Shown here in pieces: positions 4,920 through 40,051 of a stretch of 64,000 bases of DNA. Source of the stretch: Escherichia coli. Lineage in GTDB: Bacteria > Pseudomonadota > Gammaproteobacteria > Enterobacterales > Enterobacteriaceae. Numbering within the stretch: position 1 is the first letter of the stretch; every line of letters begins with the position of its first letter. Both the position numbers and the translations under genes were made by a program. The stretch lies in NCBI RefSeq assembly GCF_044324875.1, contig NZ_CP172185.1; one strand, 5' to 3'. The notes beneath the pieces were generated by a model. That model made no database searches and was not told the DNA's origin. It saw nothing but the letters and a program-made list of their open reading frames with translations.

Positions 4920-6664
4920 TGACCAAACTGCATTTTGTGAAGTTGCGCGTAAACGCCACGGTGCTCAAGCAAATCGTTATGCGTACCGCGTTCCACAATG
5001 ACACCATCCTCGACGACCACGATTTCGTCTGCCTTTTCAATGGTAGACAAGCGGTGGGCAATCACCAGAGAGGTACGGTTTTTCTGCAACTCATCCAGTG
5101 CCGCCTGAATCGCACGTTCGGATTCGGTATCCAACGCCGAGGTAGCTTCGTCCAGAATCAGAATCGGGCTATCACGCAACAAGGCTCGAGCGATGGCAAT
5201 ACGCTGACGCTGACCGCCAGAGAGCAGCACGCCGTTTTCACCAATCACTGTATCGAGACCGTTATCCATCTTATTGATGAAGTCCATGGCGTAGGCCATA
5301 CGCGCCGCTTCTTCAATTTGCTCACGGCTGTACTGTTCAGTCCGTGCGTAAGCAATGTTGTTGGCAACCGTATCGTTAAACAGATGGACATTCTGCGACA
5401 CCAGAGCAACCTGGTTACGTAACGACGCCAGGGTATACTCGCGCAGATCGTGACCATCCATCAGGATTTCGCCTTCATCAATATCGTAAAAACGTGTGAT
5501 TAGGCTGGCGATGGTTGATTTACCTGAACCAGAGCGTCCAACCAGAGCAACCGTCTTCCCTGCCGGAATTTTCAGGTTGATGTTACGCAATGCGGGCACG
5601 TCACGTCCCGGATAAGTAAAGGTGACATTGCGGAATTCCACGTCGCCAGTCGCACGCTCGATCACGCGCTTACCTTCGTCTTTCTCCTGCTCACTGTCCA
5701 GAATGGTAAACAGCGTCTGACAAGCCGCCATACCGCGCTGGAACTGGGCGTTAACGTTGGTCAGCGATTTCAGCGGACGCATCAGTGCAATCATTGAAGA
5801 GAAAACAACGGTAATCGTACCGGCAGTCAGGCTATCCATGACACTTGGGAAGCTCGCCGCATACAGAACAAACGCCAGCGCCAAAGAGGCGATCAGCTGA
5901 ATGATCGGATCAGAGATGGAAGAGGCTGAAACCATTTTCATCCCCTGAAGACGCATTCGGTTACTGACTTTATCGAAGCGTTTCGTTTCCACTTCCTGAC
6001 CACCGAAAATCAATACTTCTTTGTGGCCCTTCAGCATTTGTTCTGCGCTGGTGGTCACCTGCCCCATGGTGTTCTGCATGTTTTTACTGATGTTACGAAA
6101 ACGCTTCGATACAACGCGAATCGCAATCGAAACAATCGGTGCCAGCACAATCAAAATGATCGACAGTTGCCAGCTGTAATAGAACATCATGATGAACAGG
6201 CCGATGATCGACGCACCTTCACGCACAACAGTAATCAGTGCGCCGGAAGAAGAAGAAGCAACCTGTTCGGAATCGTAGGTGATACGTGACAACAGCGTAC
6301 CCGTTGACTGTTTGTCAAAAAATGAAACAGGCATTCCCATCATGTGACCAAACAGGCGGCGACGCATGGTCATTACCACCTTTCCTGATACCCAGGAGAT
6401 ACAGTAGCTGGAGACATAGCTGGTGATACCACGTAAAATCATCAGCCCGATCACCACCAGCGGCATCCACACCAGCACGGAGCGATCTGTTTTACCAAAG
6501 CCATCATCAAGAAGTGGCTTAAGGAGCGATAACATGAAGGTATCGCTGGCTGCGTTGAGGATTAACGCTACGCCCGCCACGATCAGACCCGCTTTAAAAG
6601 GCGCAATGGTTGGCCACAGTCGGCGGAACGTCTGCCACGTAGAGAGATCTTTGTCGTTATGCAT
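4916..6664 (-). CDS. msbA: Lipid A/LPS ABC exporter (flippase) MsbA
   Basis: 582-aa ORF with TM domain plus ABC ATPase motifs ([17 protein letters not shown]). Confidence 0.97.
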
Positions 6665-6700: not shown

Positions 6701-8965
6701 CTACCCGTTATCCACTGGCACGCCAAACCACTGATGATACCAACGAGGTAAAATTTGCTCCCTGAGGCTGCTAATCCGCCAGCCTTGCGCTGAAAAATTG
6801 ACCGTTATTTGCCCCTGATGAGGAGTATCAAGCCACTTATAACCCTGTTGTTGATAGCGATGTTTAACTTTGCTTGAGGGCAGTCGCCATGCGTTATAGC
6901 GCGATGCCGATGCGAGTGCCACTTTTCCATTCACTCGCTGAATTAATGGCAACGATGATGAGGTATTACTGCCATGGTGAGGTATCTGAAGTAATGTTGC
7001 CTGCATTTGCTGCCAGTAACGGCTTAGCATCTTTTGTTCAGCGGGGGCTTCAATATCACCGGTTAGAAGAATGCTATTCGTCCCGTCATCAACCTTAACC
7101 ACACAGGAATGGTTATTTCCTTTATCGTTGCTACCTTGTAAAGGCCAGTGCGCGCTGAAACGCAATCCTTGCCATTGCCACGCTTCGCCACGCACACAGG
7201 GCTGATGATGTTCCCAGTTTAACGGACTTCTGATCCATAACATCGGCCATGTATGCAATATTGAGTCCAGCCCTCCCCGGTGATCCAGATGTTCATGACT
7301 CAGAATAACGCCTTCCGGTTCAAGATTATGCCAGTGGAGCCAGGGGATAATCAGTTGTTGCCCACTATCTCCTTCAGGCCAGGCCAGTCCCGTGTCATAG
7401 AGAATCGCTTTGCCGTTTCTGGCTATCACCATTGCCAGCCCTTGCCCGACATCAAGCATGTACACTTGCCACTCGTCAGGTCGAGGTTTTTGCCACAGCG
7501 GCCAGCACATCAGCAAGCCTCCAGCCACACACATTGCTGGCAACGTTCGCCAGGCGTTTAATCGCCATACCACCAGTAAGAACCATGGGGAAAATGATAG
7601 CCATTGCCAACGTTCAGCAATGTTGATCCACCCTTCCGGCAAACTCTTTAACCCCCAGAAAAGTAAAGCCAAAGACCGGTCGGCAAGAAAGCATAACCCC
7701 TGTTCCAGGATTAACGGCCCGCTTAAATGCACAACCATCGCGGCGAGGATTAATGGAACCGTGATAAATGTCACCAGGGGAATTGCAAAAAGATTTGCAA
7801 TAAACGAGGTCAGACTAATGCCATGAAATATGACGATTTGCACGGGCATAAGCAGGAGTGTGATTCCCAGTTGCAGATGGATGAGGGAAACAACCGCACG
7901 CAATACCGGCGGCAGCTGCCACTCAGGACAGGGAAACCACTGATACCAAAAAATCAGTGCCGCGACCGCAGCGGCAGAGAGCCATAAACTTTGCGAGAGA
8001 ATGGCAACAGGATCCATCAGCAAAATTGCCGCCAGACAACATATCCACACATCCCAGCCACTCCATTGTCGCCCACTTAACTTAAGCATTCCCCACATGG
8101 CAAGCGCCACCACGGTACGCAATGCAGGAGGTTGCATCCCAGTCAGCCAGGCATAAAAAGCAGCACAGCAGATTCCGCCAATTAATGGCATTTGCCAGTG
8201 GATCCAGCGCCCAGGCAGAAAAACTTGCCCACCGCGAATGAGTCCGGCAGCCAGCAACGCCGCAAAAGCGATATGCAATCCCGATATCGCCATTAAATGC
8301 GCCGTTCCAGTATCGCGCATGATATTTTTGATTTCTTTGGGAACGGATAACCGTTCCCCCATACCTAAACCAAGAATAACCGCATTCCACGGATAGGGTT
8401 GCAGCGTTGTTTGTAATGACGCCAGATACTGTGCACGCAAGCTACAATTCGGTTCAATGACACTTGCCTGCAGAAAGCGGCCGGTCAGCGGCTGATGCTG
8501 GGCAATGGCATAACGCTGGCTATCAAAGCTGCCATCATTAAGTTGGCCATGAACTGCACGAACTTTGAGTTTCATTGACCATAGTTGTCCGGCACAAACC
8601 GCTTGCGGGAGATATTCACCATACAGCACGAGGCCTGGCGCAGGGAATATACGTCGACCTTGTAGATGAGTGATTTGACCGTAATGAGTGGTCATGCCGT
8701 CAGTAGCAGTGATCTCAACTATTGCATCCTGCGTCGCGCCAGTTAAGGTTTCTCCTGCCCACAAAATTTGCTTTGCCGCTGATATGCCCCAAAGAAAAAA
8801 CAGCAACGTCAGCGCGATATAACGGACGGCTTTAACAGGAATAAATGCCAGTACGCAGGCGAAGACAGTCAGAAACGCAAGGGTTAATGTCCCAGGCAAT
8901 TGGGGCAAAACCAGCAACGGAAAAATTCCGCAAATTATGCATACGCCGACTGTCGTTATTTTCAT
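6701..8965 (-). CDS. ycaI: ComEC/Rec2-family inner membrane protein YcaI
   Basis: Start chosen at internal ATG (MKITTVG) preceded by GGGAGGGG SD; ~754 aa polytopic membrane protein with C-terminal metallo-beta-lactamase-like HxHxDH. Confidence 0.88.
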   Translation of the reverse strand: MKITTVGVCIICGIFPLLVLPQLPGTLTLAFLTVFACVLAFIPVKAVRYIALTLLFFLWGISAAKQILWAGETLTGATQDAIVEITATDGMTTHYGQITHLQGRRIFPAPGLVLYGEYLPQAVCAGQLWSMKLKVRAVHGQLNDGSFDSQRYAIAQHQPLTGRFLQASVIEPNCSLRAQYLASLQTTLQPYPWNAVILGLGMGERLSVPKEIKNIMRDTGTAHLMAISGLHIAFAALLAAGLIRGGQVFLPGRWIHWQMPLIGGICCAAFYAWLTGMQPPALRTVVALAMWGMLKLSGRQWSGWDVWICCLAAILLMDPVAILSQSLWLSAAAVAALIFWYQWFPCPEWQLPPVLRAVVSLIHLQLGITLLLMPVQIVIFHGISLTSFIANLFAIPLVTFITVPLILAAMVVHLSGPLILEQGLCFLADRSLALLFWGLKSLPEGWINIAERWQWLSFSPWFLLVVWRLNAWRTLPAMCVAGGLLMCWPLWQKPRPDEWQVYMLDVGQGLAMVIARNGKAILYDTGLAWPEGDSGQQLIIPWLHWHNLEPEGVILSHEHLDHRGGLDSILHTWPMLWIRSPLNWEHHQPCVRGEAWQWQGLRFSAHWPLQGSNDKGNNHSCVVKVDDGTNSILLTGDIEAPAEQKMLSRYWQQMQATLLQIPHHGSNTSSSLPLIQRVNGKVALASASRYNAWRLPSSKVKHRYQQQGYKWLDTPHQGQITVNFSAQGWRISSLREQILPRWYHQWFGVPVDNG

Positions 8966-30857: not shown

Positions 30858-31027
30858 AATGGCTCACTCAAGCTTGCTCACGATTGATTCCAGTAACAAA
30901 CCGTATTGTGTAATTATTTCTATAGCAGTTCGCTATATAGGCTTGTATACATCGAATAATTTGAAAATCAAAGAGATAGGTAGATTTTCACTCGAAAGTA
31001 GTATTACGTGTAAGTGAGGAGTAATTA

Positions 31028-31041
31028 TTGTTCGGTATCAA
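31028..31041 (-). promoter_or_regulatory. FNR binding site of dmsA promoter
   Basis: Minus strand reads TTGATACCGAACAA (TTGAT-N4-AACAA) about 170 nt upstream of dmsA ATG. Confidence 0.7.
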
Positions 31042-31153
31042 AGGGAGACAAAAAAAGCGCCCGCAGGAGATTTAACGGTACTTACTCCTCTTGCTGATTT
31101 CCTTATTTTTCAATAAGTAAACAAAAACAAGGGGAGCAAATTATCACAAATAA

Positions 31154-34474: not shown

Positions 34475-34768
34475 ATGCTTAATAATAAAAAAAACCGAAT
34501 CATTGATAACAGTGAACAGGTCAACAAAATAATCGAAGGCACAAACAAATTAATTAAGAAAAAAAACAAACTAAGCCGTGAATTAATGGAACATCCGGAA
34601 GAAATATTATTAGCCATGATGCACCAGACAGAAGCGATAGCCATCGCCCTTGCCGTGCAGGCGCTTTCTGAGTTCCGGGAAGAAAACATCAGGCTGGCTC
34701 AGGAGCTGAAAAACCTCAGACGTCAGCTTCAGAGCACTGAGGCTGGCACGTCATCACGAATACACTGA
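34475..34768 (+). CDS. Hypothetical Lys-rich protein (97 aa) in AT-rich island
   Basis: AAGGAG SD; AT-rich codon usage unlike flanking phage DNA. Confidence 0.55.
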   Translation: MLNNKKNRIIDNSEQVNKIIEGTNKLIKKKNKLSRELMEHPEEILLAMMHQTEAIAIALAVQALSEFREENIRLAQELKNLRRQLQSTEAGTSSRIH

Positions 34769-34778
34769 GGGCCACACC

Positions 34779-34988
34779 ATGACTGCAATTCTGAGAAGAC
34801 GCAATAAAACGCTTTTTACCGATACATCCGGGATGGAATACGAAGTGGAAAGCAGTGTCATCGCCACCACCACCCGATGCCCGGCAGGTGACGAACTGAT
34901 TTACGTCCACCTGACGGACGGGTCACAGATAACCGTCCTGACAGAGTCATGGCGCGAACTCGAGATAATAAGCGAGGTAAGAACATGA
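34779..34988 (+). CDS. Hypothetical phage early protein (69 aa)
   Basis: GAGGG SD; compact spacing. Confidence 0.5.
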   Translation: MTAILRRRNKTLFTDTSGMEYEVESSVIATTTRCPAGDELIYVHLTDGSQITVLTESWRELEIISEVRT

Positions 34989-35236: not shown

Positions 35237-35719
35237 TTATCGGGAAAAACCGATCGTAATGGCAGCCATCATCTTTTCAGCGAAAGAGAGAGATTCACGA
35301 TGACTGATATTCAGAGACATACAGGCTTTGTTGTACGCCACATTTTCCATGCATTCCAGGACAGGAGAGTCATGCATCTCAAGCTCTGGAAGGCGTGCCA
35401 GCAGAGCTTCCGTACTGAGGAGGGCGCTTTTGGTAATCAACTCATTGTAGCGATGGGCATGCTCACTCGCCGCCTGCGCACGTTGCCCGAAACGACATAT
35501 GAAATTACAGGCTCCGAGAACCACCACCACTGCCCCAAGCACCCAGCCGAAATGCCAGCCGGCTACGATGAACGCACCCGCCGCAAGGATCAAAATGTTG
35601 ATGATCGCATCAAGGCGACGATTGAATACCGCCGCGATGCGCTCCAGCCAGTAGCTGTACCAGAGACGGAACATGACCTCATCCCGTTCTCTCGATTTTT
35701 TACGTTGGTTGTTTTGCAT
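35237..35719 (-). CDS. Membrane protein (160 aa, central double TM hairpin), opposite strand to early operon
   Basis: GAGGGA SD before ATG; hydrophobic stretch INILILAAGAFIVAGWHFGWVLGAVVVVLGACNFI; more protein-like than the overlapping plus-strand ORF. Confidence 0.55.
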   Translation of the reverse strand: MQNNQRKKSRERDEVMFRLWYSYWLERIAAVFNRRLDAIINILILAAGAFIVAGWHFGWVLGAVVVVLGACNFICRFGQRAQAASEHAHRYNELITKSALLSTEALLARLPELEMHDSPVLECMENVAYNKACMSLNISHRESLSFAEKMMAAITIGFSR

Positions 35720-35953: not shown

Positions 35954-36508
35954 ATGCCCGCACTTAAACCTATGGGTGTATCAGGTGTACCACCGAAGCA
36001 TGTCAGAGCCTGGACACAACAGGAAGATGCTCTACTGGTCGGTTTATACCCCTCCCACACCGTACCAGAACTGACAAAACACTTTCAGAGAACCGGGCCA
36101 GCAATACGAAGCCGCATCCGTCTTTTGCTCTCTCAGGGGGTTATCCACACCAAACAACCCCCCCTGAATACAAAAGAACTCAACACGCTCATCAGGAATC
36201 GCCACACAAAAACCATCCGGGAACTCGCGAATGAACTGGGGCGCTCGACATCCACGGTGGGACTGAACCTGAGAAAAAGAGGGTACCGGTTCAGGAAATA
36301 CGGGGAACTCCACCACAGAGCCAGATACAGCGATCACCTGGTGGAGTTGGTAACTGAACTGCGCGATGAACAGGGGATGACATTCAGCGAAATCAGAAAG
36401 TACATCCGGGACATGGCCGGGATATCCCTTAAAAGATGGGTCCTCGCCCGGCTTTACGCACGATATACCGCCGCTGACACCGTGCTTTGCGAACTGCTAC
36501 CGGACTGA
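35954..36508 (+). CDS. DNA-binding protein with repeated Myb/HTH-like units (~184 aa)
   Basis: Start at ATG with GGAGA SD (MPALKPMG); repeats resembling W-T-x-x-E-D-x-x-L Myb/SANT pattern. Confidence 0.5.
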   Translation: MPALKPMGVSGVPPKHVRAWTQQEDALLVGLYPSHTVPELTKHFQRTGPAIRSRIRLLLSQGVIHTKQPPLNTKELNTLIRNRHTKTIRELANELGRSTSTVGLNLRKRGYRFRKYGELHHRARYSDHLVELVTELRDEQGMTFSEIRKYIRDMAGISLKRWVLARLYARYTAADTVLCELLPD

Positions 36509-36606
36509 GTAACCACTATGCACACACAAAAAAACCGCTTGCCATGCCGCAATCAGTCAGGTTACATTTCCGCTGCACCTCATAAAACGGGTGCCGGGAT
36601 TGCAAC

Positions 36607-36648
36607 CCCCGCTGACAACTACAGCGCACAACCGCGCCAGCGGTTTTT
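36607..36648 (+). terminator. Candidate rho-independent terminator
   Basis: CCGCTG...CAGCGG hairpin followed by T7. Confidence 0.45.
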
Positions 36649-36828
36649 TTGTGCGTACCGTATCGCCACGTCTTTTTCGCGCCAGAATTATGGCGGGGCG
36701 TATGGGGCCGACTTCGGTCGGGCCGGTTTCTGTAGTTGCCGGTGGTTGCAACCCTGTACGTCTCGCCACCCAGAATTGCAACCTCTGGATGGTGAGTTTT
36801 CAAAACTTGCAACTACAGAGGCCACACC

Positions 36829-37053
36829 ATGGCAAACCGCAAACAACAGCGCGCATACGCTGCGCGTCGTCACATCCAGACTGAAATCAACCGCAGACTT
36901 TTCCGCGCATTCCGCGTCGCGCATATCATGCACATCAATATGCTGCATGAGCGCAGCCACGCACTGTCAAACATGTATTCCGCCGCTGTATTCAGCTACC
37001 TGGCGGATGACCTGCGCGAGCTGCAGGACCTCATTAACCAGCACCACCACTAA
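36829..37053 (+). CDS. Hypothetical small basic protein (74 aa)
   Basis: ATG preceded by AGAGG; preferred over overlapping low-complexity 205-aa ORF. Confidence 0.4.
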   Translation: MANRKQQRAYAARRHIQTEINRRLFRAFRVAHIMHINMLHERSHALSNMYSAAVFSYLADDLRELQDLINQHHH

Positions 37054-37121
37054 TCAACATCCCGGAGCCATCCCGCCCCCGTACGCGGGAGGCTTCCGCA
37101 CGTCCGTTTCCGGAGGTTCTC

Positions 37122-37535
37122 ATGAAGAGCGTTAAGGGACTTTCAGATATTCAGGATTTTTTTAACTGGATGTGGGCGGTGGATCCACGCCTCGCTTCCC
37201 GTCTCAATGACCTGCACGACTATTACCGCCGCGCCTGTAAACAGGCAGCCCGCAGCGCTGCCACATACGGGGATTTTTCCTTCACCGTTGACGACCGTTA
37301 CCGCGTGGATGTCAGAGACCAGAACCACAGCCTGGAGCTGGGCCTGTTCCACATCAACGGGTGCGACAGCAGCGTTATCAGCTGGTCATCGTCAGAAATG
37401 GTGCTCGTTCTGGAAATGACCACCCACAGCGTGGTCGTGAAAGGGATTAAAACAGCAGAAGACTTTATCGCTGAATACCAGCGCCTTCTTGTGCTGTACC
37501 GGGCTGCATTTCAGAAGGCAACAGCAGGGGAGTAA
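37122..37535 (+). CDS. Hypothetical phage protein (137 aa) immediately upstream of gene A
   Basis: GGAGG SD; tight spacing to replication gene. Confidence 0.55.
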   Translation: MKSVKGLSDIQDFFNWMWAVDPRLASRLNDLHDYYRRACKQAARSAATYGDFSFTVDDRYRVDVRDQNHSLELGLFHINGCDSSVISWSSSEMVLVLEMTTHSVVVKGIKTAEDFIAEYQRLLVLYRAAFQKATAGE

Positions 37536-37540
37536 GCGGA

Positions 37541-40051
37541 ATGAGCCATCACCACACGCACCTGGCGTACCCGTGGAACGCCCCGCTGCCGGTTATTGAT
37601 CCTGAGACATTCGGCAGAGCATTACCGCAGAAGCCAACCGCATTACAACGGGCAATCCGTGACTACCTCACCGAAGACATTCGCACTGAGGCCCGGCTGG
37701 ATGAAGAAACCGTGGCCTTCCTGACAACCACGGACAAAGGTAAGCAAATTAATTCACACCTTCACCGGGACGAAGAGCGGCAGATAAGGCTGGATAAGCT
37801 GGCACGACACAGACGCGAAAATCCGCCAACGGCGGTATCGGAGGCGATAGCCGAACTTCGCACCCTGCCCTCGTTTCTTGCCAGTGTGTTGATCCGTGAT
37901 CTGGCACGACTGAACCGGAAACAGCAAAGTGCCCGCAGTGAAGGTGTAAAAAACAACAGCGCATACGTGGCCGATAATTTCGTTCGCCGTGGACTGCGTG
38001 CGCGCCTGAAACGTATTGAAAGGGTTAACGACCGCTTTGCAACGCCGGCATTCAAAACCACCGTCGTGCGCCATCGCCTTGAAGAACTGCTCACACTGCC
38101 GCAACTCACCCGTGACGAAATCCAGCGCATCGCCACACTGACAGCCCAGGCATTCGCCGCAGAATTTGAACGCATATGTGATGAAGTTCTTGAACGGACA
38201 GGCAAGGATAATGACAGCCCGGTTATCTGGCTGCTGGCCTACCAGAAGGTGGCACGCACAGCCTTAATTCTGGGCATGGTCCCGCCATACTGGCCGGAAC
38301 TCGAAATCAGGCACAACCGACGCACACCGCCGGACCCTGAACGGGTTCCGGGTGCGGTACTGCGCATCACCTGCGCGACCTGGTGGAACAACCAGTTACG
38401 CCACGTCGCCGATCTCTGGCGGGAGGAGTTACTGCGCGCCGCCGGCAGAGTGTCACGTAAACAATCCCCCTATATCAGCCATGAGTCACTACTGGAGTTC
38501 CGCGAGAAGCGCCAGCGCACCTGTGACTTTCTCAAAAGCTGGGATATTGAAAACGAAGACGGCGAGCGCCTGAGTCTGGAGGACGTGTACTGGGCTGGCC
38601 TGGGTAATCCACGCAACCGCCGCAATGAAATGATGGTCTGCGTCAGAGGGATGGAGATGGTGGCCGAATTACGGGCTGACGTCGCATTCTTCATCACAGT
38701 AACCACCCCTTCCCGCTTTCACAGCGTGAACGAGAACGGCAGCCTGAACCCGAAATACAACGGTGCCACAGTACGAGATGCCAGTGATTATCTGGTTTAC
38801 GACTTCTTCGCAGCCGTAAGAAAAAAAATAAAAAAAGAGGGGCTGGGCTGGTACGGCGTGCGAACCGCTGAGCCACACCATGACGGCACGCCACACTGGC
38901 ATATGCTGGTATTCACTTCCCCGGAGAACGCAGAGCGCATCATCGAAATTATGCGCGAAGCAGCAATTAAATCAGATCGCCACGAACTGGGGGACGATAT
39001 TTCACCGCGCTTTAAATGCGAGAAGATAGACCCGGAAAAAGGCACACCGGCAAGCTATATCGCAACCTATATCGGTAAGAACCTGGACGCCAGCGCTTTC
39101 CACAACAATGATCCGAAAACCGGAAAACCTTACGTTGATGAGGAATCCGGGAAAACCATGGCGGAAACCGTGGAGAACGCCATTGCCTGGGCAAGCCTTC
39201 ACCGCATCCGTCAGTTCCAGTTTTTCGGCATTCCGCCCCGCCAGGTATGGCGTGAACTCCGCCGCCTTGCAAGCCAGATGGAGCGCAACCCGGCATCACC
39301 GAAGCACCTCGATCATGACGATATTGACGCCATTATGGCTGCCGCAGATGTGGGATGTTTTGCCACCTACATCATGAAACAGGGTGGTGTGCTCATTCCG
39401 CGCAACCAGTATCTGGTCCGCACCGCATACGAAACCGCAGACGAAGCCAACGACTACGGTGAATTCCCTCAACGTATCTACGGAATCTGCGCCCCGTCGC
39501 TCGGAGAGCGGTACACCATATGCACCCATCCGGACGAGTGGAAACTGGTTAAAAAAGAAACAATACCAGACAACCGCACGGGCGAGGGTTTTGACCTTCA
39601 GGGCGACCCCGTCGCCCCTTGGACTCGTGGCAATAACTGTCCCCGGGATGAAAAAACAGACAATCACGGACCAGAAAACAGGCAGGACCCCGGACGACTG
39701 ACGCTTCCCGAAGAGAACCTGGAAAGCTGGCTGAATACGTTAAGCAGGGGCGATCGGAGAAAACTGCGTAATCAGATTAAAAATCAGCCGTCGGGCGCAA
39801 AAACCGGACAAAACGACACCACACCGGCATCTGACACCCCTGTAAGGGTGGGGATTGTCGTGCCTGCGGATACCGCGACGGACACGCAAATCGCCCGCGA
39901 ACTTGATGCGCTGGGTGTGCAGTTGCCTGACGCGGCCATCATCTCCGTGCGTAACGGTGCCCGTGTGCGTCTGGATAACGGGGGAACAGCGTACTGGGAT
40001 GAGTCAGCCCGTCACATCATCACAGAGCAGCCAGTGGAGGCGGGAGCATGA
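37541..40051 (+). CDS. Phage replication initiation endonuclease (P2 gpA-like, rolling-circle HUH)
   Basis: 836 aa; HUH-type motif GTPHWHMLVF and tyrosine motif YIATYIGKNLD. Confidence 0.88.
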   Translation: MSHHHTHLAYPWNAPLPVIDPETFGRALPQKPTALQRAIRDYLTEDIRTEARLDEETVAFLTTTDKGKQINSHLHRDEERQIRLDKLARHRRENPPTAVSEAIAELRTLPSFLASVLIRDLARLNRKQQSARSEGVKNNSAYVADNFVRRGLRARLKRIERVNDRFATPAFKTTVVRHRLEELLTLPQLTRDEIQRIATLTAQAFAAEFERICDEVLERTGKDNDSPVIWLLAYQKVARTALILGMVPPYWPELEIRHNRRTPPDPERVPGAVLRITCATWWNNQLRHVADLWREELLRAAGRVSRKQSPYISHESLLEFREKRQRTCDFLKSWDIENEDGERLSLEDVYWAGLGNPRNRRNEMMVCVRGMEMVAELRADVAFFITVTTPSRFHSVNENGSLNPKYNGATVRDASDYLVYDFFAAVRKKIKKEGLGWYGVRTAEPHHDGTPHWHMLVFTSPENAERIIEIMREAAIKSDRHELGDDISPRFKCEKIDPEKGTPASYIATYIGKNLDASAFHNNDPKTGKPYVDEESGKTMAETVENAIAWASLHRIRQFQFFGIPPRQVWRELRRLASQMERNPASPKHLDHDDIDAIMAAADVGCFATYIMKQGGVLIPRNQYLVRTAYETADEANDYGEFPQRIYGICAPSLGERYTICTHPDEWKLVKKETIPDNRTGEGFDLQGDPVAPWTRGNNCPRDEKTDNHGPENRQDPGRLTLPEENLESWLNTLSRGDRRKLRNQIKNQPSGAKTGQNDTTPASDTPVRVGIVVPADTATDTQIARELDALGVQLPDAAIISVRNGARVRLDNGGTAYWDESARHIITEQPVEAGA

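Follow-up and report, generated by a model that had tools for sequence, protein, structure and literature searches.

What is encoded at positions 36509–36828 of the 64,000-nucleotide (nt) stretch of Escherichia coli DNA analysed here (contig NZ_CP172185.1; the whole stretch is hereafter called the window)? This region is a gap that follows the stop codon of a gene for a DNA-binding protein (36508) and precedes the ATG (36829) of a gene of 74 codons. It is crossed by a 205-codon open reading frame (ORF) and contains repeated TTGCAAC motifs and a terminator, and a protein-coding sequence, an array of protein-binding sites and RNA each come into question. Our analysis indicates that the region is very probably an RNA immunity cassette of the IsrK–C4 type, comparable with the seqA–CI–seqC region of satellite P4 and the immI region of phage P1, and that it is carried by a P88-like prophage of the P2 family. 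As judged from this analysis, the cassette most likely keeps an anti-repressor-like gene and replication genes silent.

Tandem IsrK-like and C4-type RNAs

The window was scanned with Rfam 15 using the curated gathering scores, and two matches, both to full-length models on the + strand, were obtained in the cassette. The isrK model (RF01394; positions 1–77 of 77) matches 36575–36650 with 60.1 bits (gathering score, 50), and the C4 model (RF01695; positions 1–87 of 87) matches 36686–36773 with 80.1 bits (gathering score, 45; E = 4.5e-14). A small RNA was one of the possibilities raised by the first-pass annotation, which was made from the letters and their ORF translations and proposed an Rfam scan; both matches bear this possibility out. 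The features of the cassette are as follows.

36528–36534, + strand: A7 tract at the position of an UP element
36539–36568, + strand: promoter-like site; -35 TTGCCA (36539–36544), 18-nt spacer, -10 TACATT (36563–36568)
36575–36650, + strand: IsrK-like leader or small RNA, equivalent of P4 seqA (Rfam RF01394, terminator scan, fold, covariation)
36575–36594, + strand: leader hairpin 1
36600–36606, + strand: box b1, TTGCAAC, in a leader hairpin loop
36616–36624, + strand: box a1, CAACTACAG, in the leader
36630–36645, + strand: hairpin AACCGC-GCCA-GCGGTT of an intrinsic terminator, followed by T7 (U7 in the RNA) to 36650 (terminator scan)
36686–36773, + strand: C4/CI-type antisense RNA (Rfam RF01695, fold, covariation)
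36691–36707 with 36752–36768, + strand: 17-bp closing stem of C4
36708–36721, + strand: UUCG hairpin CCGAC-UUCG-GUCGG, C4 hairpin 1
36722–36743, + strand: C4 hairpin 2, with box a' in its loop
36730–36738, + strand: box a', CTGTAGTTG, in the loop of C4 hairpin 2
36745–36751, + strand: box b', GTTGCAA, in the single-stranded C4 junction
36776–36782, + strand: target box b2, TTGCAAC, in the loop of a small hairpin (CCAGA, 36771–36775; TCTGG, 36784–36788)
36810–36818, + strand: target box a2, CAACTACAG, overlapping the Shine-Dalgarno sequence GAGG (36818–36821) of the gene starting at 36829

For comparison, we assembled a set of 80 viral loci, each encoding a protein related to the 74-amino acid (aa) product of the gene at 36829. 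All of the 80 loci carry the cassette (84–100% identity), and they were reduced to 49 distinct sequences (alignment A1), which are the 49 homologues referred to below.

When the C4 stretch is folded alone, its minimum free energy (MFE) structure is the Rfam consensus (-45.8 kcal/mol, z = -3.77), and none of 200 shuffled sequences was as stable. The three helices are 100% paired in the 49 homologues, with compensatory changes on both sides at three pairs. The GC-rich hairpin with a UUCG loop that had been noticed at the outset is hairpin 1 of this structure. The isrK stretch folded alone has an MFE of -27.0 kcal/mol (z = -2.67), and the terminator at 36630–36645 is the 3' end of this RNA. A terminator with a run of seven T residues had also been recognized at the outset and is present; the CCGCTG/CAGCGG pairing originally assigned to it is instead a longer-range alternative that uses the same 3' arm as the local hairpin.

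The promoter-like site predicts a transcript start at approximately 36575, which is position 1 of the isrK model match, and both of its hexamers are invariant in the 49 homologues. Because of this conservation and the position of the site, we give weight to the predicted promoter. P4 has counterpart hexamers (-35 TTGCCT and -10 TATAGT) at the same position upstream of its leader, which we take to be the promoter PLE.

A 21-nt inverted repeat (36522–36542 and 36636–36656, 90% complementary) links the A-tract and the CCGC just upstream of the -35 hexamer to the 3' half of the terminator and its U-tract. Both arms are invariant in the homologues and thus give no covariation signal for or against a putative role of the repeat as an anti-terminator for upstream transcripts. 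The repeat could be a coincidence arising from an UP element, or it could represent a pairing that is available only on transcripts initiated upstream; judged from the sequence, the A-tract may be explained equally well as an UP element.

Co-evolution of the recognition boxes

TTGCAAC occurs on the + strand of the cassette at 36600, 36746, 36776 and 36807. The four copies described in the first-pass annotation are thus present, approximately 2 nt to the right of the positions given there (36598, 36744, 36774 and 36805), and the phasing of the last three at roughly 30 bp holds, their spacings being 30 and 31 nt. Over the entire window, the motif is no more frequent than expected (15 matches versus 16.4); at this density, the Poisson probability of finding four to five copies within 214 nt is approximately 4e-7 to 4e-9. 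Copies 1–3 correspond to boxes b1, b' and b2. The fourth copy (36807–36813) forms the 5' edge of box a2 and does not covary with the b boxes. The a boxes constitute a second set: in the entire 64 kb, for which 0.24 occurrences are expected, CAACTACAG is found only at a1, at a' (as the reverse complement) and at a2, and an 11-nt segment of the C4 loop (36729–36739) is perfectly complementary to 36809–36819 at a2.

Sequence variation among the homologues is concentrated in these two short box sets and is compensatory at all three sites of each set, as revealed by the covariation analysis across homologous prophages that had also been suggested at the outset. Six alleles of box b and 12 alleles of box a are present in the 49 homologues. 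In the non-palindromic b alleles, b1 and b2 are without exception matched by their reverse complement at b' (e.g. TTTCCAC/GTGGAAA/TTTCCAC). For the pairs between C4 and the downstream targets (a'/a2 and b'/b2), 97.7% of the alignment cells are paired, compared with 69.4% when shuffled and 37–48% when the partner is slid along the alignment; 200 cells are altered on both sides, and none of 500 shuffles scored as high. The pairs between the leader and C4 (a1/a' and b1/b') behave in the same way, with 99.2% of the cells paired versus 71.5% when shuffled and 26–54% with a slid partner, and with 181 cells altered on both sides (again 0 of 500 shuffles as high). Cognate b' and b2 are paired at 7 of 7 positions in all 49 homologues across the six alleles, whereas non-cognate combinations reach a mean of 4.4 of 7. 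The corresponding values for a' and a2 over the 12 alleles are 8.6 of 9 for cognate and 5.7 of 9 for non-cognate combinations. The a and b alleles are found in 22 combinations (21 without an artefact caused by homologue L033, described below) and therefore reassort. G·U wobble pairs occur at box positions, including those of the a boxes. This tolerance, together with the strict reverse complementarity of b', argues for RNA–RNA pairing and against double-stranded protein-binding sites. On the evidence of these sequences, the TTGCAAC copies are RNA recognition boxes and not protein sites.

Two homologues have unusual box arrangements. L033 (69–414) contains a 17-nt insertion, equivalent to approximately 36727–36743 of the window, which duplicates the second C4 hairpin, and thus has two different a' loops, CTTTGCTCT and CTTGTGTAG. 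Judging from its sequence, this duplication may represent a dual-specificity antisense RNA or a recombination intermediate. L043 (165–495) is a recombinant in which the leader boxes (b1 TTTCCAC and a1 CAAACGAAG) mismatch the boxes of its own C4 (b' TTGAGAA and a' CTTTGCTCT), whereas b2 and a2 match them, a pattern that suggests a crossover between the leader and C4.

The predicted target gene and downstream operon

Box a2 lies at the ribosome-binding site of the first of three genes that follow the cassette.

36829–37053, + strand: gene for the 74-aa epsilon-like 'derepression protein', the predicted regulated target (Pfam, PHROG, RefSeq)
37122–37535, + strand: gene for a 137-aa protein in the same operon (phrog_3237, RefSeq)
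37541–40051, + strand: gpA-type replication endonuclease gene (Pfam PF05840, E = 1.3e-103; PHROG, RefSeq)

The 74-aa protein matches Pfam PF25738 'Derepression protein' (27.2 bits; gathering score, 27) and phrog_3688 (E = 4.5e-42), is 29% identical to the epsilon protein of P4 (E = 1e-7) and is named 'derepression protein' in RefSeq. In its own frame, the gene shows a ratio of nonsynonymous to synonymous polymorphism (pN/pS) of 0.30. No similarity was detected between the 137-aa protein and P4 ORF151.

The 205-codon ORF across the cassette

The ORF that crosses the gap extends through the RNAs into the operon.

36518–37135, + strand: 205-codon ORF; starts 21 nt upstream of the -35 hexamer, crosses both RNAs and then crosses the epsilon-like gene out of frame

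Its stop codon lies 14 nt inside the next gene, which encodes the 137-aa protein. There are four stop trinucleotides on the + strand in 36518–36828 (36583, 36613, 36733 and 36793), all of which share the reading frame of the 74-aa gene; the remaining two + frames contain no stop over this segment, which only 30 of 2,000 shuffles match. Although indels shift the frame, 58 of 60 distinct homologue contexts retain an equivalent ORF. In the homologues, it starts 21–78 nt (513 nt in one case) upstream of the -35 hexamer and crosses the RNAs and the epsilon-like gene, with a start codon that varies in both identity and position. In 50 of 57 contexts, the end of the ORF forms an ATGA overlap with the next gene; in the window type, the overlap is 14 nt. 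At the variable columns of the alignment, only 1 of 20 possible stop-creating variants was seen in the ORF frame, compared with 51 of 92 in the pooled control frames (Fisher p = 3e-5, in a test that uses a consensus background and in which variant alleles are not independent events) and 6 of 22 in the true epsilon frame.

The amino acid sequence shows no such constraint. For the RNA part, the pN/pS values are 0.98 in the ORF frame, which is also the frame of the 'Ash' family matches described below, and 0.92 and 0.89 in the other two frames; over the overlap with the epsilon-like gene, it is 2.0 in the long-ORF frame. The window allele even reads C4 in a different frame than most of its relatives because of a +1/-1 indel pair, and is still open. 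The 205-codon ORF is not a conserved protein. The first-pass annotation had regarded it as spurious, which is sustained as far as the protein is concerned; yet stop codons are avoided in its frame and the ATGA overlap is prevalent, so that this judgement holds only in part.

Database families exist for translations of this stretch. The majority-type homologue of the ORF matches Pfam PF10554 'Ash' with 27.1 bits (gathering score, 26), and a 214-aa ORF of P4 matches it with 82 bits. None of the window ORFs matches PF10554, and the 205-codon ORF has no match to any Pfam family. Together with PF10554, phrog_6928, 995, 821, 3960 and 29966 match translations of the promoter–isrK–C4 stretch in P4, P88-like phages and Shiga toxin (Stx) phages, and several of the PHROG families on this stretch are labelled 'transcriptional repressor/regulator'. 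PF10554 and these PHROG families appear to have been built at least partly on ORFs that read through conserved RNA. In 99 viral loci matched by pattern, many of which are probably not C4, both strands were equally open across the putative C4.

It is possible, with a likelihood somewhat short of even, that ribosomes do translate the 205-codon ORF and that this serves regulation rather than the production of a protein. Selection appears to keep the ORF open while leaving its amino acid sequence free, and we suggest, equally tentatively, that the ORF constitutes a second, translational layer of control, the P2-family counterpart of P4 eta. In the P4 sequence, a 65-codon ORF is nested in frame within the 214-codon ORF, and we presume these two ORFs to be kil and eta, respectively; translation of eta and kil reportedly prevents termination at timm (Forti et al. 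1999). As the ORF of the window starts upstream of the cassette promoter, only transcripts from the phage early promoter would contain all of it. On these transcripts, translating ribosomes would open up the leader terminator, the C4 structure and the a2 and b2 sites, and would shield the RNA from Rho. The RNA immunity would then have no effect on early-promoter transcripts, which would be coupled to the replication genes. If this is true, the ORF layer and the reassorting two-box code (12 a and 6 b alleles) would together make up a portable, programmable immunity module common to satellites and their helper-type phages.

Proposed mechanism and alternative explanations

We propose that the cassette operates as follows. 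By homology with P4, P1 and Gifsy-1, a putative constitutive promoter at 36539–36568 would start transcription at approximately 36575. Most of the transcripts would end at the presumably leaky leader terminator to yield an IsrK-like small RNA, and those that read through would be processed into a stable C4-like RNA of approximately 80–90 nt. C4-type RNAs are stable RNAs of approximately 70–90 nt that are processed from a longer transcript, and RNase P is said to carry out this processing in P1 and P4 (Hartmann et al. 1995; Forti et al. 1995). The C4-like RNA would pair with b2 and a2 on other transcripts and block the ribosome-binding site of the epsilon-like gene. Through the loss of translation and through Rho-dependent polarity or termination, the 137-aa gene and replication gene A would also be switched off. 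The leader boxes b1 and a1 may either compete for the antisense boxes a' and b' or cooperate with them, and the many reassorted a and b alleles would define separate immunity specificities. Several elements of this scheme are directly seen, namely the two tandem RNAs on the + strand, the exposed a' and b' boxes, the two partners of each box, the location of a2 on a Shine-Dalgarno sequence and the co-evolution of all three copies of each box.

Several points weigh against this interpretation. The RNAs, their ends and their processing are deduced from our computational analysis. The promoter matches the consensus at 9 of 12 positions, and one such match is expected by chance in the stretch. The c4-a1b1 model (RF03163) has no match in 36300–37100 at E ≤ 10; P4 itself scores below the gathering score of this model (44.1 versus 46.7), and the region is covered by the isrK model instead. 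Naive duplex energies calculated for whole molecules are unconvincing (z = -3.45 for C4 with its target and -1.59 for C4 with the leader); these energies ignore intramolecular structure and were left out of the evidence. The putative anti-repressor function of the 74-aa protein depends on its limited identity to epsilon (29%) and a borderline Pfam score. Furthermore, the direction of regulation may be the opposite, as IsrK of the Salmonella phage Gifsy-1 activates translation of the downstream anti-repressor (PMC4825925).

The last point leads to an alternative that shares all of the RNA features. According to the logic of Gifsy-1, the read-through mRNA would be self-locked in cis by pairing of the leader boxes with those of C4, and the short IsrK-like RNA would open it in trans and activate translation of the derepression gene; the cassette would then trigger induction instead of locking in immunity. 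In the MFE structure of the complete transcript (276 nt), b1 and a1 are indeed paired with a' and b' in cis (-112.4 kcal/mol, z = -4.13), and this structure matches 'structure A' of the isrK-orf45 RNA (PMC4825925). Because this predicted cis pairing resembles the inactive structure of Gifsy-1, we retain activation as a rival. It would also agree with the finding that the covariation of a1 and b1 with a' and b' is no looser than that of the downstream boxes, and with the increase in anrP translation of more than 100-fold caused by IsrK in Gifsy-1 (PMC4825925). However, the nearest relatives in both sequence and gene order are P4-type cassettes with epsilon, in which the CI RNA is a repressor that needs seqA and seqC (PMC4825925), and a2 is located right at the ribosome-binding site, as one would expect if the cassette acts by repression. 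We therefore consider the Gifsy-1 logic rather unlikely, although the two types of logic are not mutually exclusive.

The other two alternatives deny the RNA its central role. If the region were mainly protein-coding, the 205-codon or 'Ash family' ORF would specify a functional regulatory protein and the RNA features would be secondary. The PF10554 matches in relatives, the repressor and regulator labels of the PHROG families, the avoidance of stop codons and the ATGA overlap fit this idea, which we nevertheless regard as very improbable: pN/pS over the RNA part is like that of the other frames and is elevated over the epsilon overlap, C4 is read in a different frame in the window, the start codon varies, the window ORF has no Pfam match, and the variation falls on the very sites that form RNA pairs. 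The simplest explanation of the protein 'families' is that they represent translated stretches of a conserved RNA. The first-pass annotation had also considered an iteron or operator array, in which the TTGCAAC copies would be bound by a protein such as the helix-turn-helix (HTH) protein encoded at 35954–36508. The copies are indeed clustered, with the last three approximately 30 nt apart, and the HTH gene adjoins them. This idea is scarcely tenable, because the copies have the properties of mutually complementary RNA segments: in non-palindromic alleles, the middle one is invariably the reverse complement of the outer two and lies inside a structured RNA, G·U-type differences between partner boxes are tolerated, and the fourth copy belongs to a different box set and does not covary. 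Moreover, the HTH gene is not linked to the cassette, and no cassette protein varies with the box alleles. The RNA immunity cassette thus remains the explanation that we favour.

Host prophage and genomic neighbourhood

A query of 801 nt covering the cassette and its flanks (36400–37200) is 100% identical to several complete E. coli genomes and 92% identical to phage P88 over the matched part. Among 5,426 complete E. coli genomes, 1,206 match part of this query over the cassette and flanks, and some genomes contain 2–4 cassettes. The window is a segment of an E. coli chromosome that contains a P88-like prophage (Peduoviridae, Xuanwuvirus; P2 family). The leftward genes of the prophage include the integrase and C repressor genes, and the rightward genes are in the order cox, several small genes, the DNA-binding-protein gene, the cassette, the gene for the 'derepression protein', the 137-aa protein gene and the gene for the gpA replication endonuclease.

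Homology among the relatives begins at 36518–36525, and several unrelated sequences are found upstream of this left boundary. The HTH gene at 35954–36508 is replaced by unrelated genes in homologues, for example by an SPFH-domain gene in P88. The unrelated sequences that abut the boundary point to modular exchange of the cassette. Modular exchange had been suggested at the outset on different grounds, namely the similarity between the gene-start regions at 34779 and 36829; the exchange is supported by the boundary, and the repeat (34768–34781 versus 36818–36831, 12 of 14 positions identical) is weak evidence for it. GCCACACCATG occurs four times in the window, always on the + strand (34771, 36821, 38872 and 59300; 0.05 expected), twice at gene starts, once in the gpA motif EPHHDG and once in a gene of the tail-fibre region, and no common function of the copies is evident. 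The 11-mer repeat GAGGCCACACCATG, which has four copies where 0.05 are expected, was considered as a shared initiation cassette and rejected as weak, since two of the copies are in coding sequence.

No RNA feature is annotated at the cassette in RefSeq or in the GenBank record of P88. The P88 record (L002) places a 'hypothetical protein' on the minus strand (5033–5221) directly over the isrK/C4 module, and this call is probably spurious. The equivalent minus-strand ORFs of the window (36516–36812 and 36557–36781) have no PHROG match.

Two other features of the prophage may be mentioned. A gene for a 160-aa protein (35237–35719, minus strand; phrog_6315, function unknown) is surrounded by genes of the rightward early operon but runs in the opposite direction, and it resembles a moron or cargo insertion. 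The Rfam scan also detected the small RNA STnc130 at 30948–31082 (+ strand; 125.8 bits, gathering score 55), flanked by the end of dmsA and by the integrase gene of the prophage, at the left prophage junction; the prophage may be integrated adjacent to or within the STnc130 locus. No attachment (att) repeat was found near STnc130 within the window, where a search for attR or a duplicated att core gave only a 14-nt chance match, and a search of the window for tRNA and tmRNA genes found none.

Significance

The cassette is a clean, previously unannotated member of the IsrK–C4 family represented by P4 seqA–CI–seqC and P1 immI, and it does not overturn current understanding. What goes beyond the known systems is the natural table of reassorting box alleles and the evidence for an ORF that is kept open without amino acid constraint. 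Its recognition fills a gap in annotation at a place where spurious or 'Ash' ORFs have been called, and P88-like phages probably have a second, RNA-based layer of immunity over their replication genes. The allele table also provides a ready natural set of orthogonal antisense/target pairs.

Comparison with known systems

A search of the literature collection used here for an isrK/C4 cassette in P2-like phages found none described, and a paper on the prophage small RNA svsR that was considered proved to be unrelated. The RNA motifs themselves are well documented: the phage motifs reported by Weinberg et al. include 'c4 antisense RNA' and 'c4-a1b1' (PMC2864571), and the Rfam isrK and C4 models detect seqA and CI of P4 as structural homologues, with P1, P7 and N15 using similar systems (PMC3632133, PMC10111431).

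In the immI region of P1 and P7 (c4–icd–ant1/2), c4 blocks ant expression at the ribosome-binding site, thereby controlling an anti-repressor pathway, and sequence differences in this system are the basis of heteroimmunity (PMC12197685, PMC8198154). The window shares with immI an RNA of the C4 family, the pairing of a' and b' with their targets a2 and b2, situated at the ribosome-binding site of the first gene downstream, and upstream copies a1 and b1 (the Rfam description of RF03163 is 'a1, b1 targets of C4 antisense RNA'). It differs in that its downstream genes are unrelated to icd and ant and in that 12 a and 6 b alleles contrast with the single P1/P7 pair.

In the isrK–orf45 (STnc1160)–anrP region of Gifsy-1, IsrK has its own promoter and a leaky terminator, a processed downstream RNA of approximately 80 nt is complementary to IsrK, and the downstream gene encodes an anti-repressor; orf45 crosses the C4-like RNA, and its stop codon overlaps the anrP start as AUGA, with the two genes being coupled (PMC4825925). 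Unlike the P2-family prophage of the window, Gifsy-1 is lambdoid, and the effect demonstrated by experiment is the activation in trans by IsrK. Its ORF consists of 45 codons and starts after the terminator, whereas that of the window consists of approximately 205 codons and starts upstream of the promoter. Stx2a-converting lambdoid phages (e.g. LC645413) also contain the isrK and C4 pair, with 76% DNA identity, matching compensatory boxes and, in one such phage, a seventh b allele, but the downstream Rha-domain regulator is fused in frame to the C4-crossing ORF (Pfam Phage_ASH and Phage_pRha).

The system most similar to the cassette is that of P4 (NC_001609), in which the CI RNA pairs with seqA and seqC and causes premature termination of replication-gene transcription (PMC4825925). 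The P4 immunity region has the order PLE, seqA, CI RNA/seqB, seqC, kil/eta and epsilon. The two Rfam models are found in P4 in the same order, corresponding to the seqA leader and the CI RNA (isrK, 60.8 bits; C4, 74.9 bits), and the boxes are also arranged as in the window, with b1 (GTGAGAA) and a1 (TTCACAGG) in the leader, a' (CCTGTGAA) and b' (TTCTCAC) in the antisense RNA, and b2 and a2 downstream. The spacing from b2 to a2 is similar (24 nt in P4 versus 27 nt in the window), and a2 of P4 overlaps the Shine-Dalgarno sequence AGGAGG of the 65-codon ORF starting at 8365, as a2 of the window does at its first gene. The promoter has a similar position, the terminator sequences resemble each other, and an epsilon homologue and replication genes are located downstream. 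The 214-codon ORF of P4 (8812–8168) likewise starts upstream of the promoter hexamers, crosses seqA and CI and ends 8 nt inside epsilon.

There are several differences between the two systems. The host element of the window is a complete P2-family phage and not a satellite, and its epsilon-like gene is located directly at the a2/Shine-Dalgarno position, which is held by kil in P4. The replication gene encodes the gpA rolling-circle endonuclease instead of the alpha primase, the spacing from the leader to C4 is 111 nt compared with 185 nt in P4, and the long ORF runs across the epsilon-like gene in another frame, whereas that of P4 ends at the epsilon start. Because the box sequences differ, cross-immunity between the two elements is not expected. 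Thus, a P2-family phage carries the same combination of RNA immunity and epsilon as satellite P4, which parasitises such phages, and this finding bears on the origin of the helper-derepression and immunity functions of P4.

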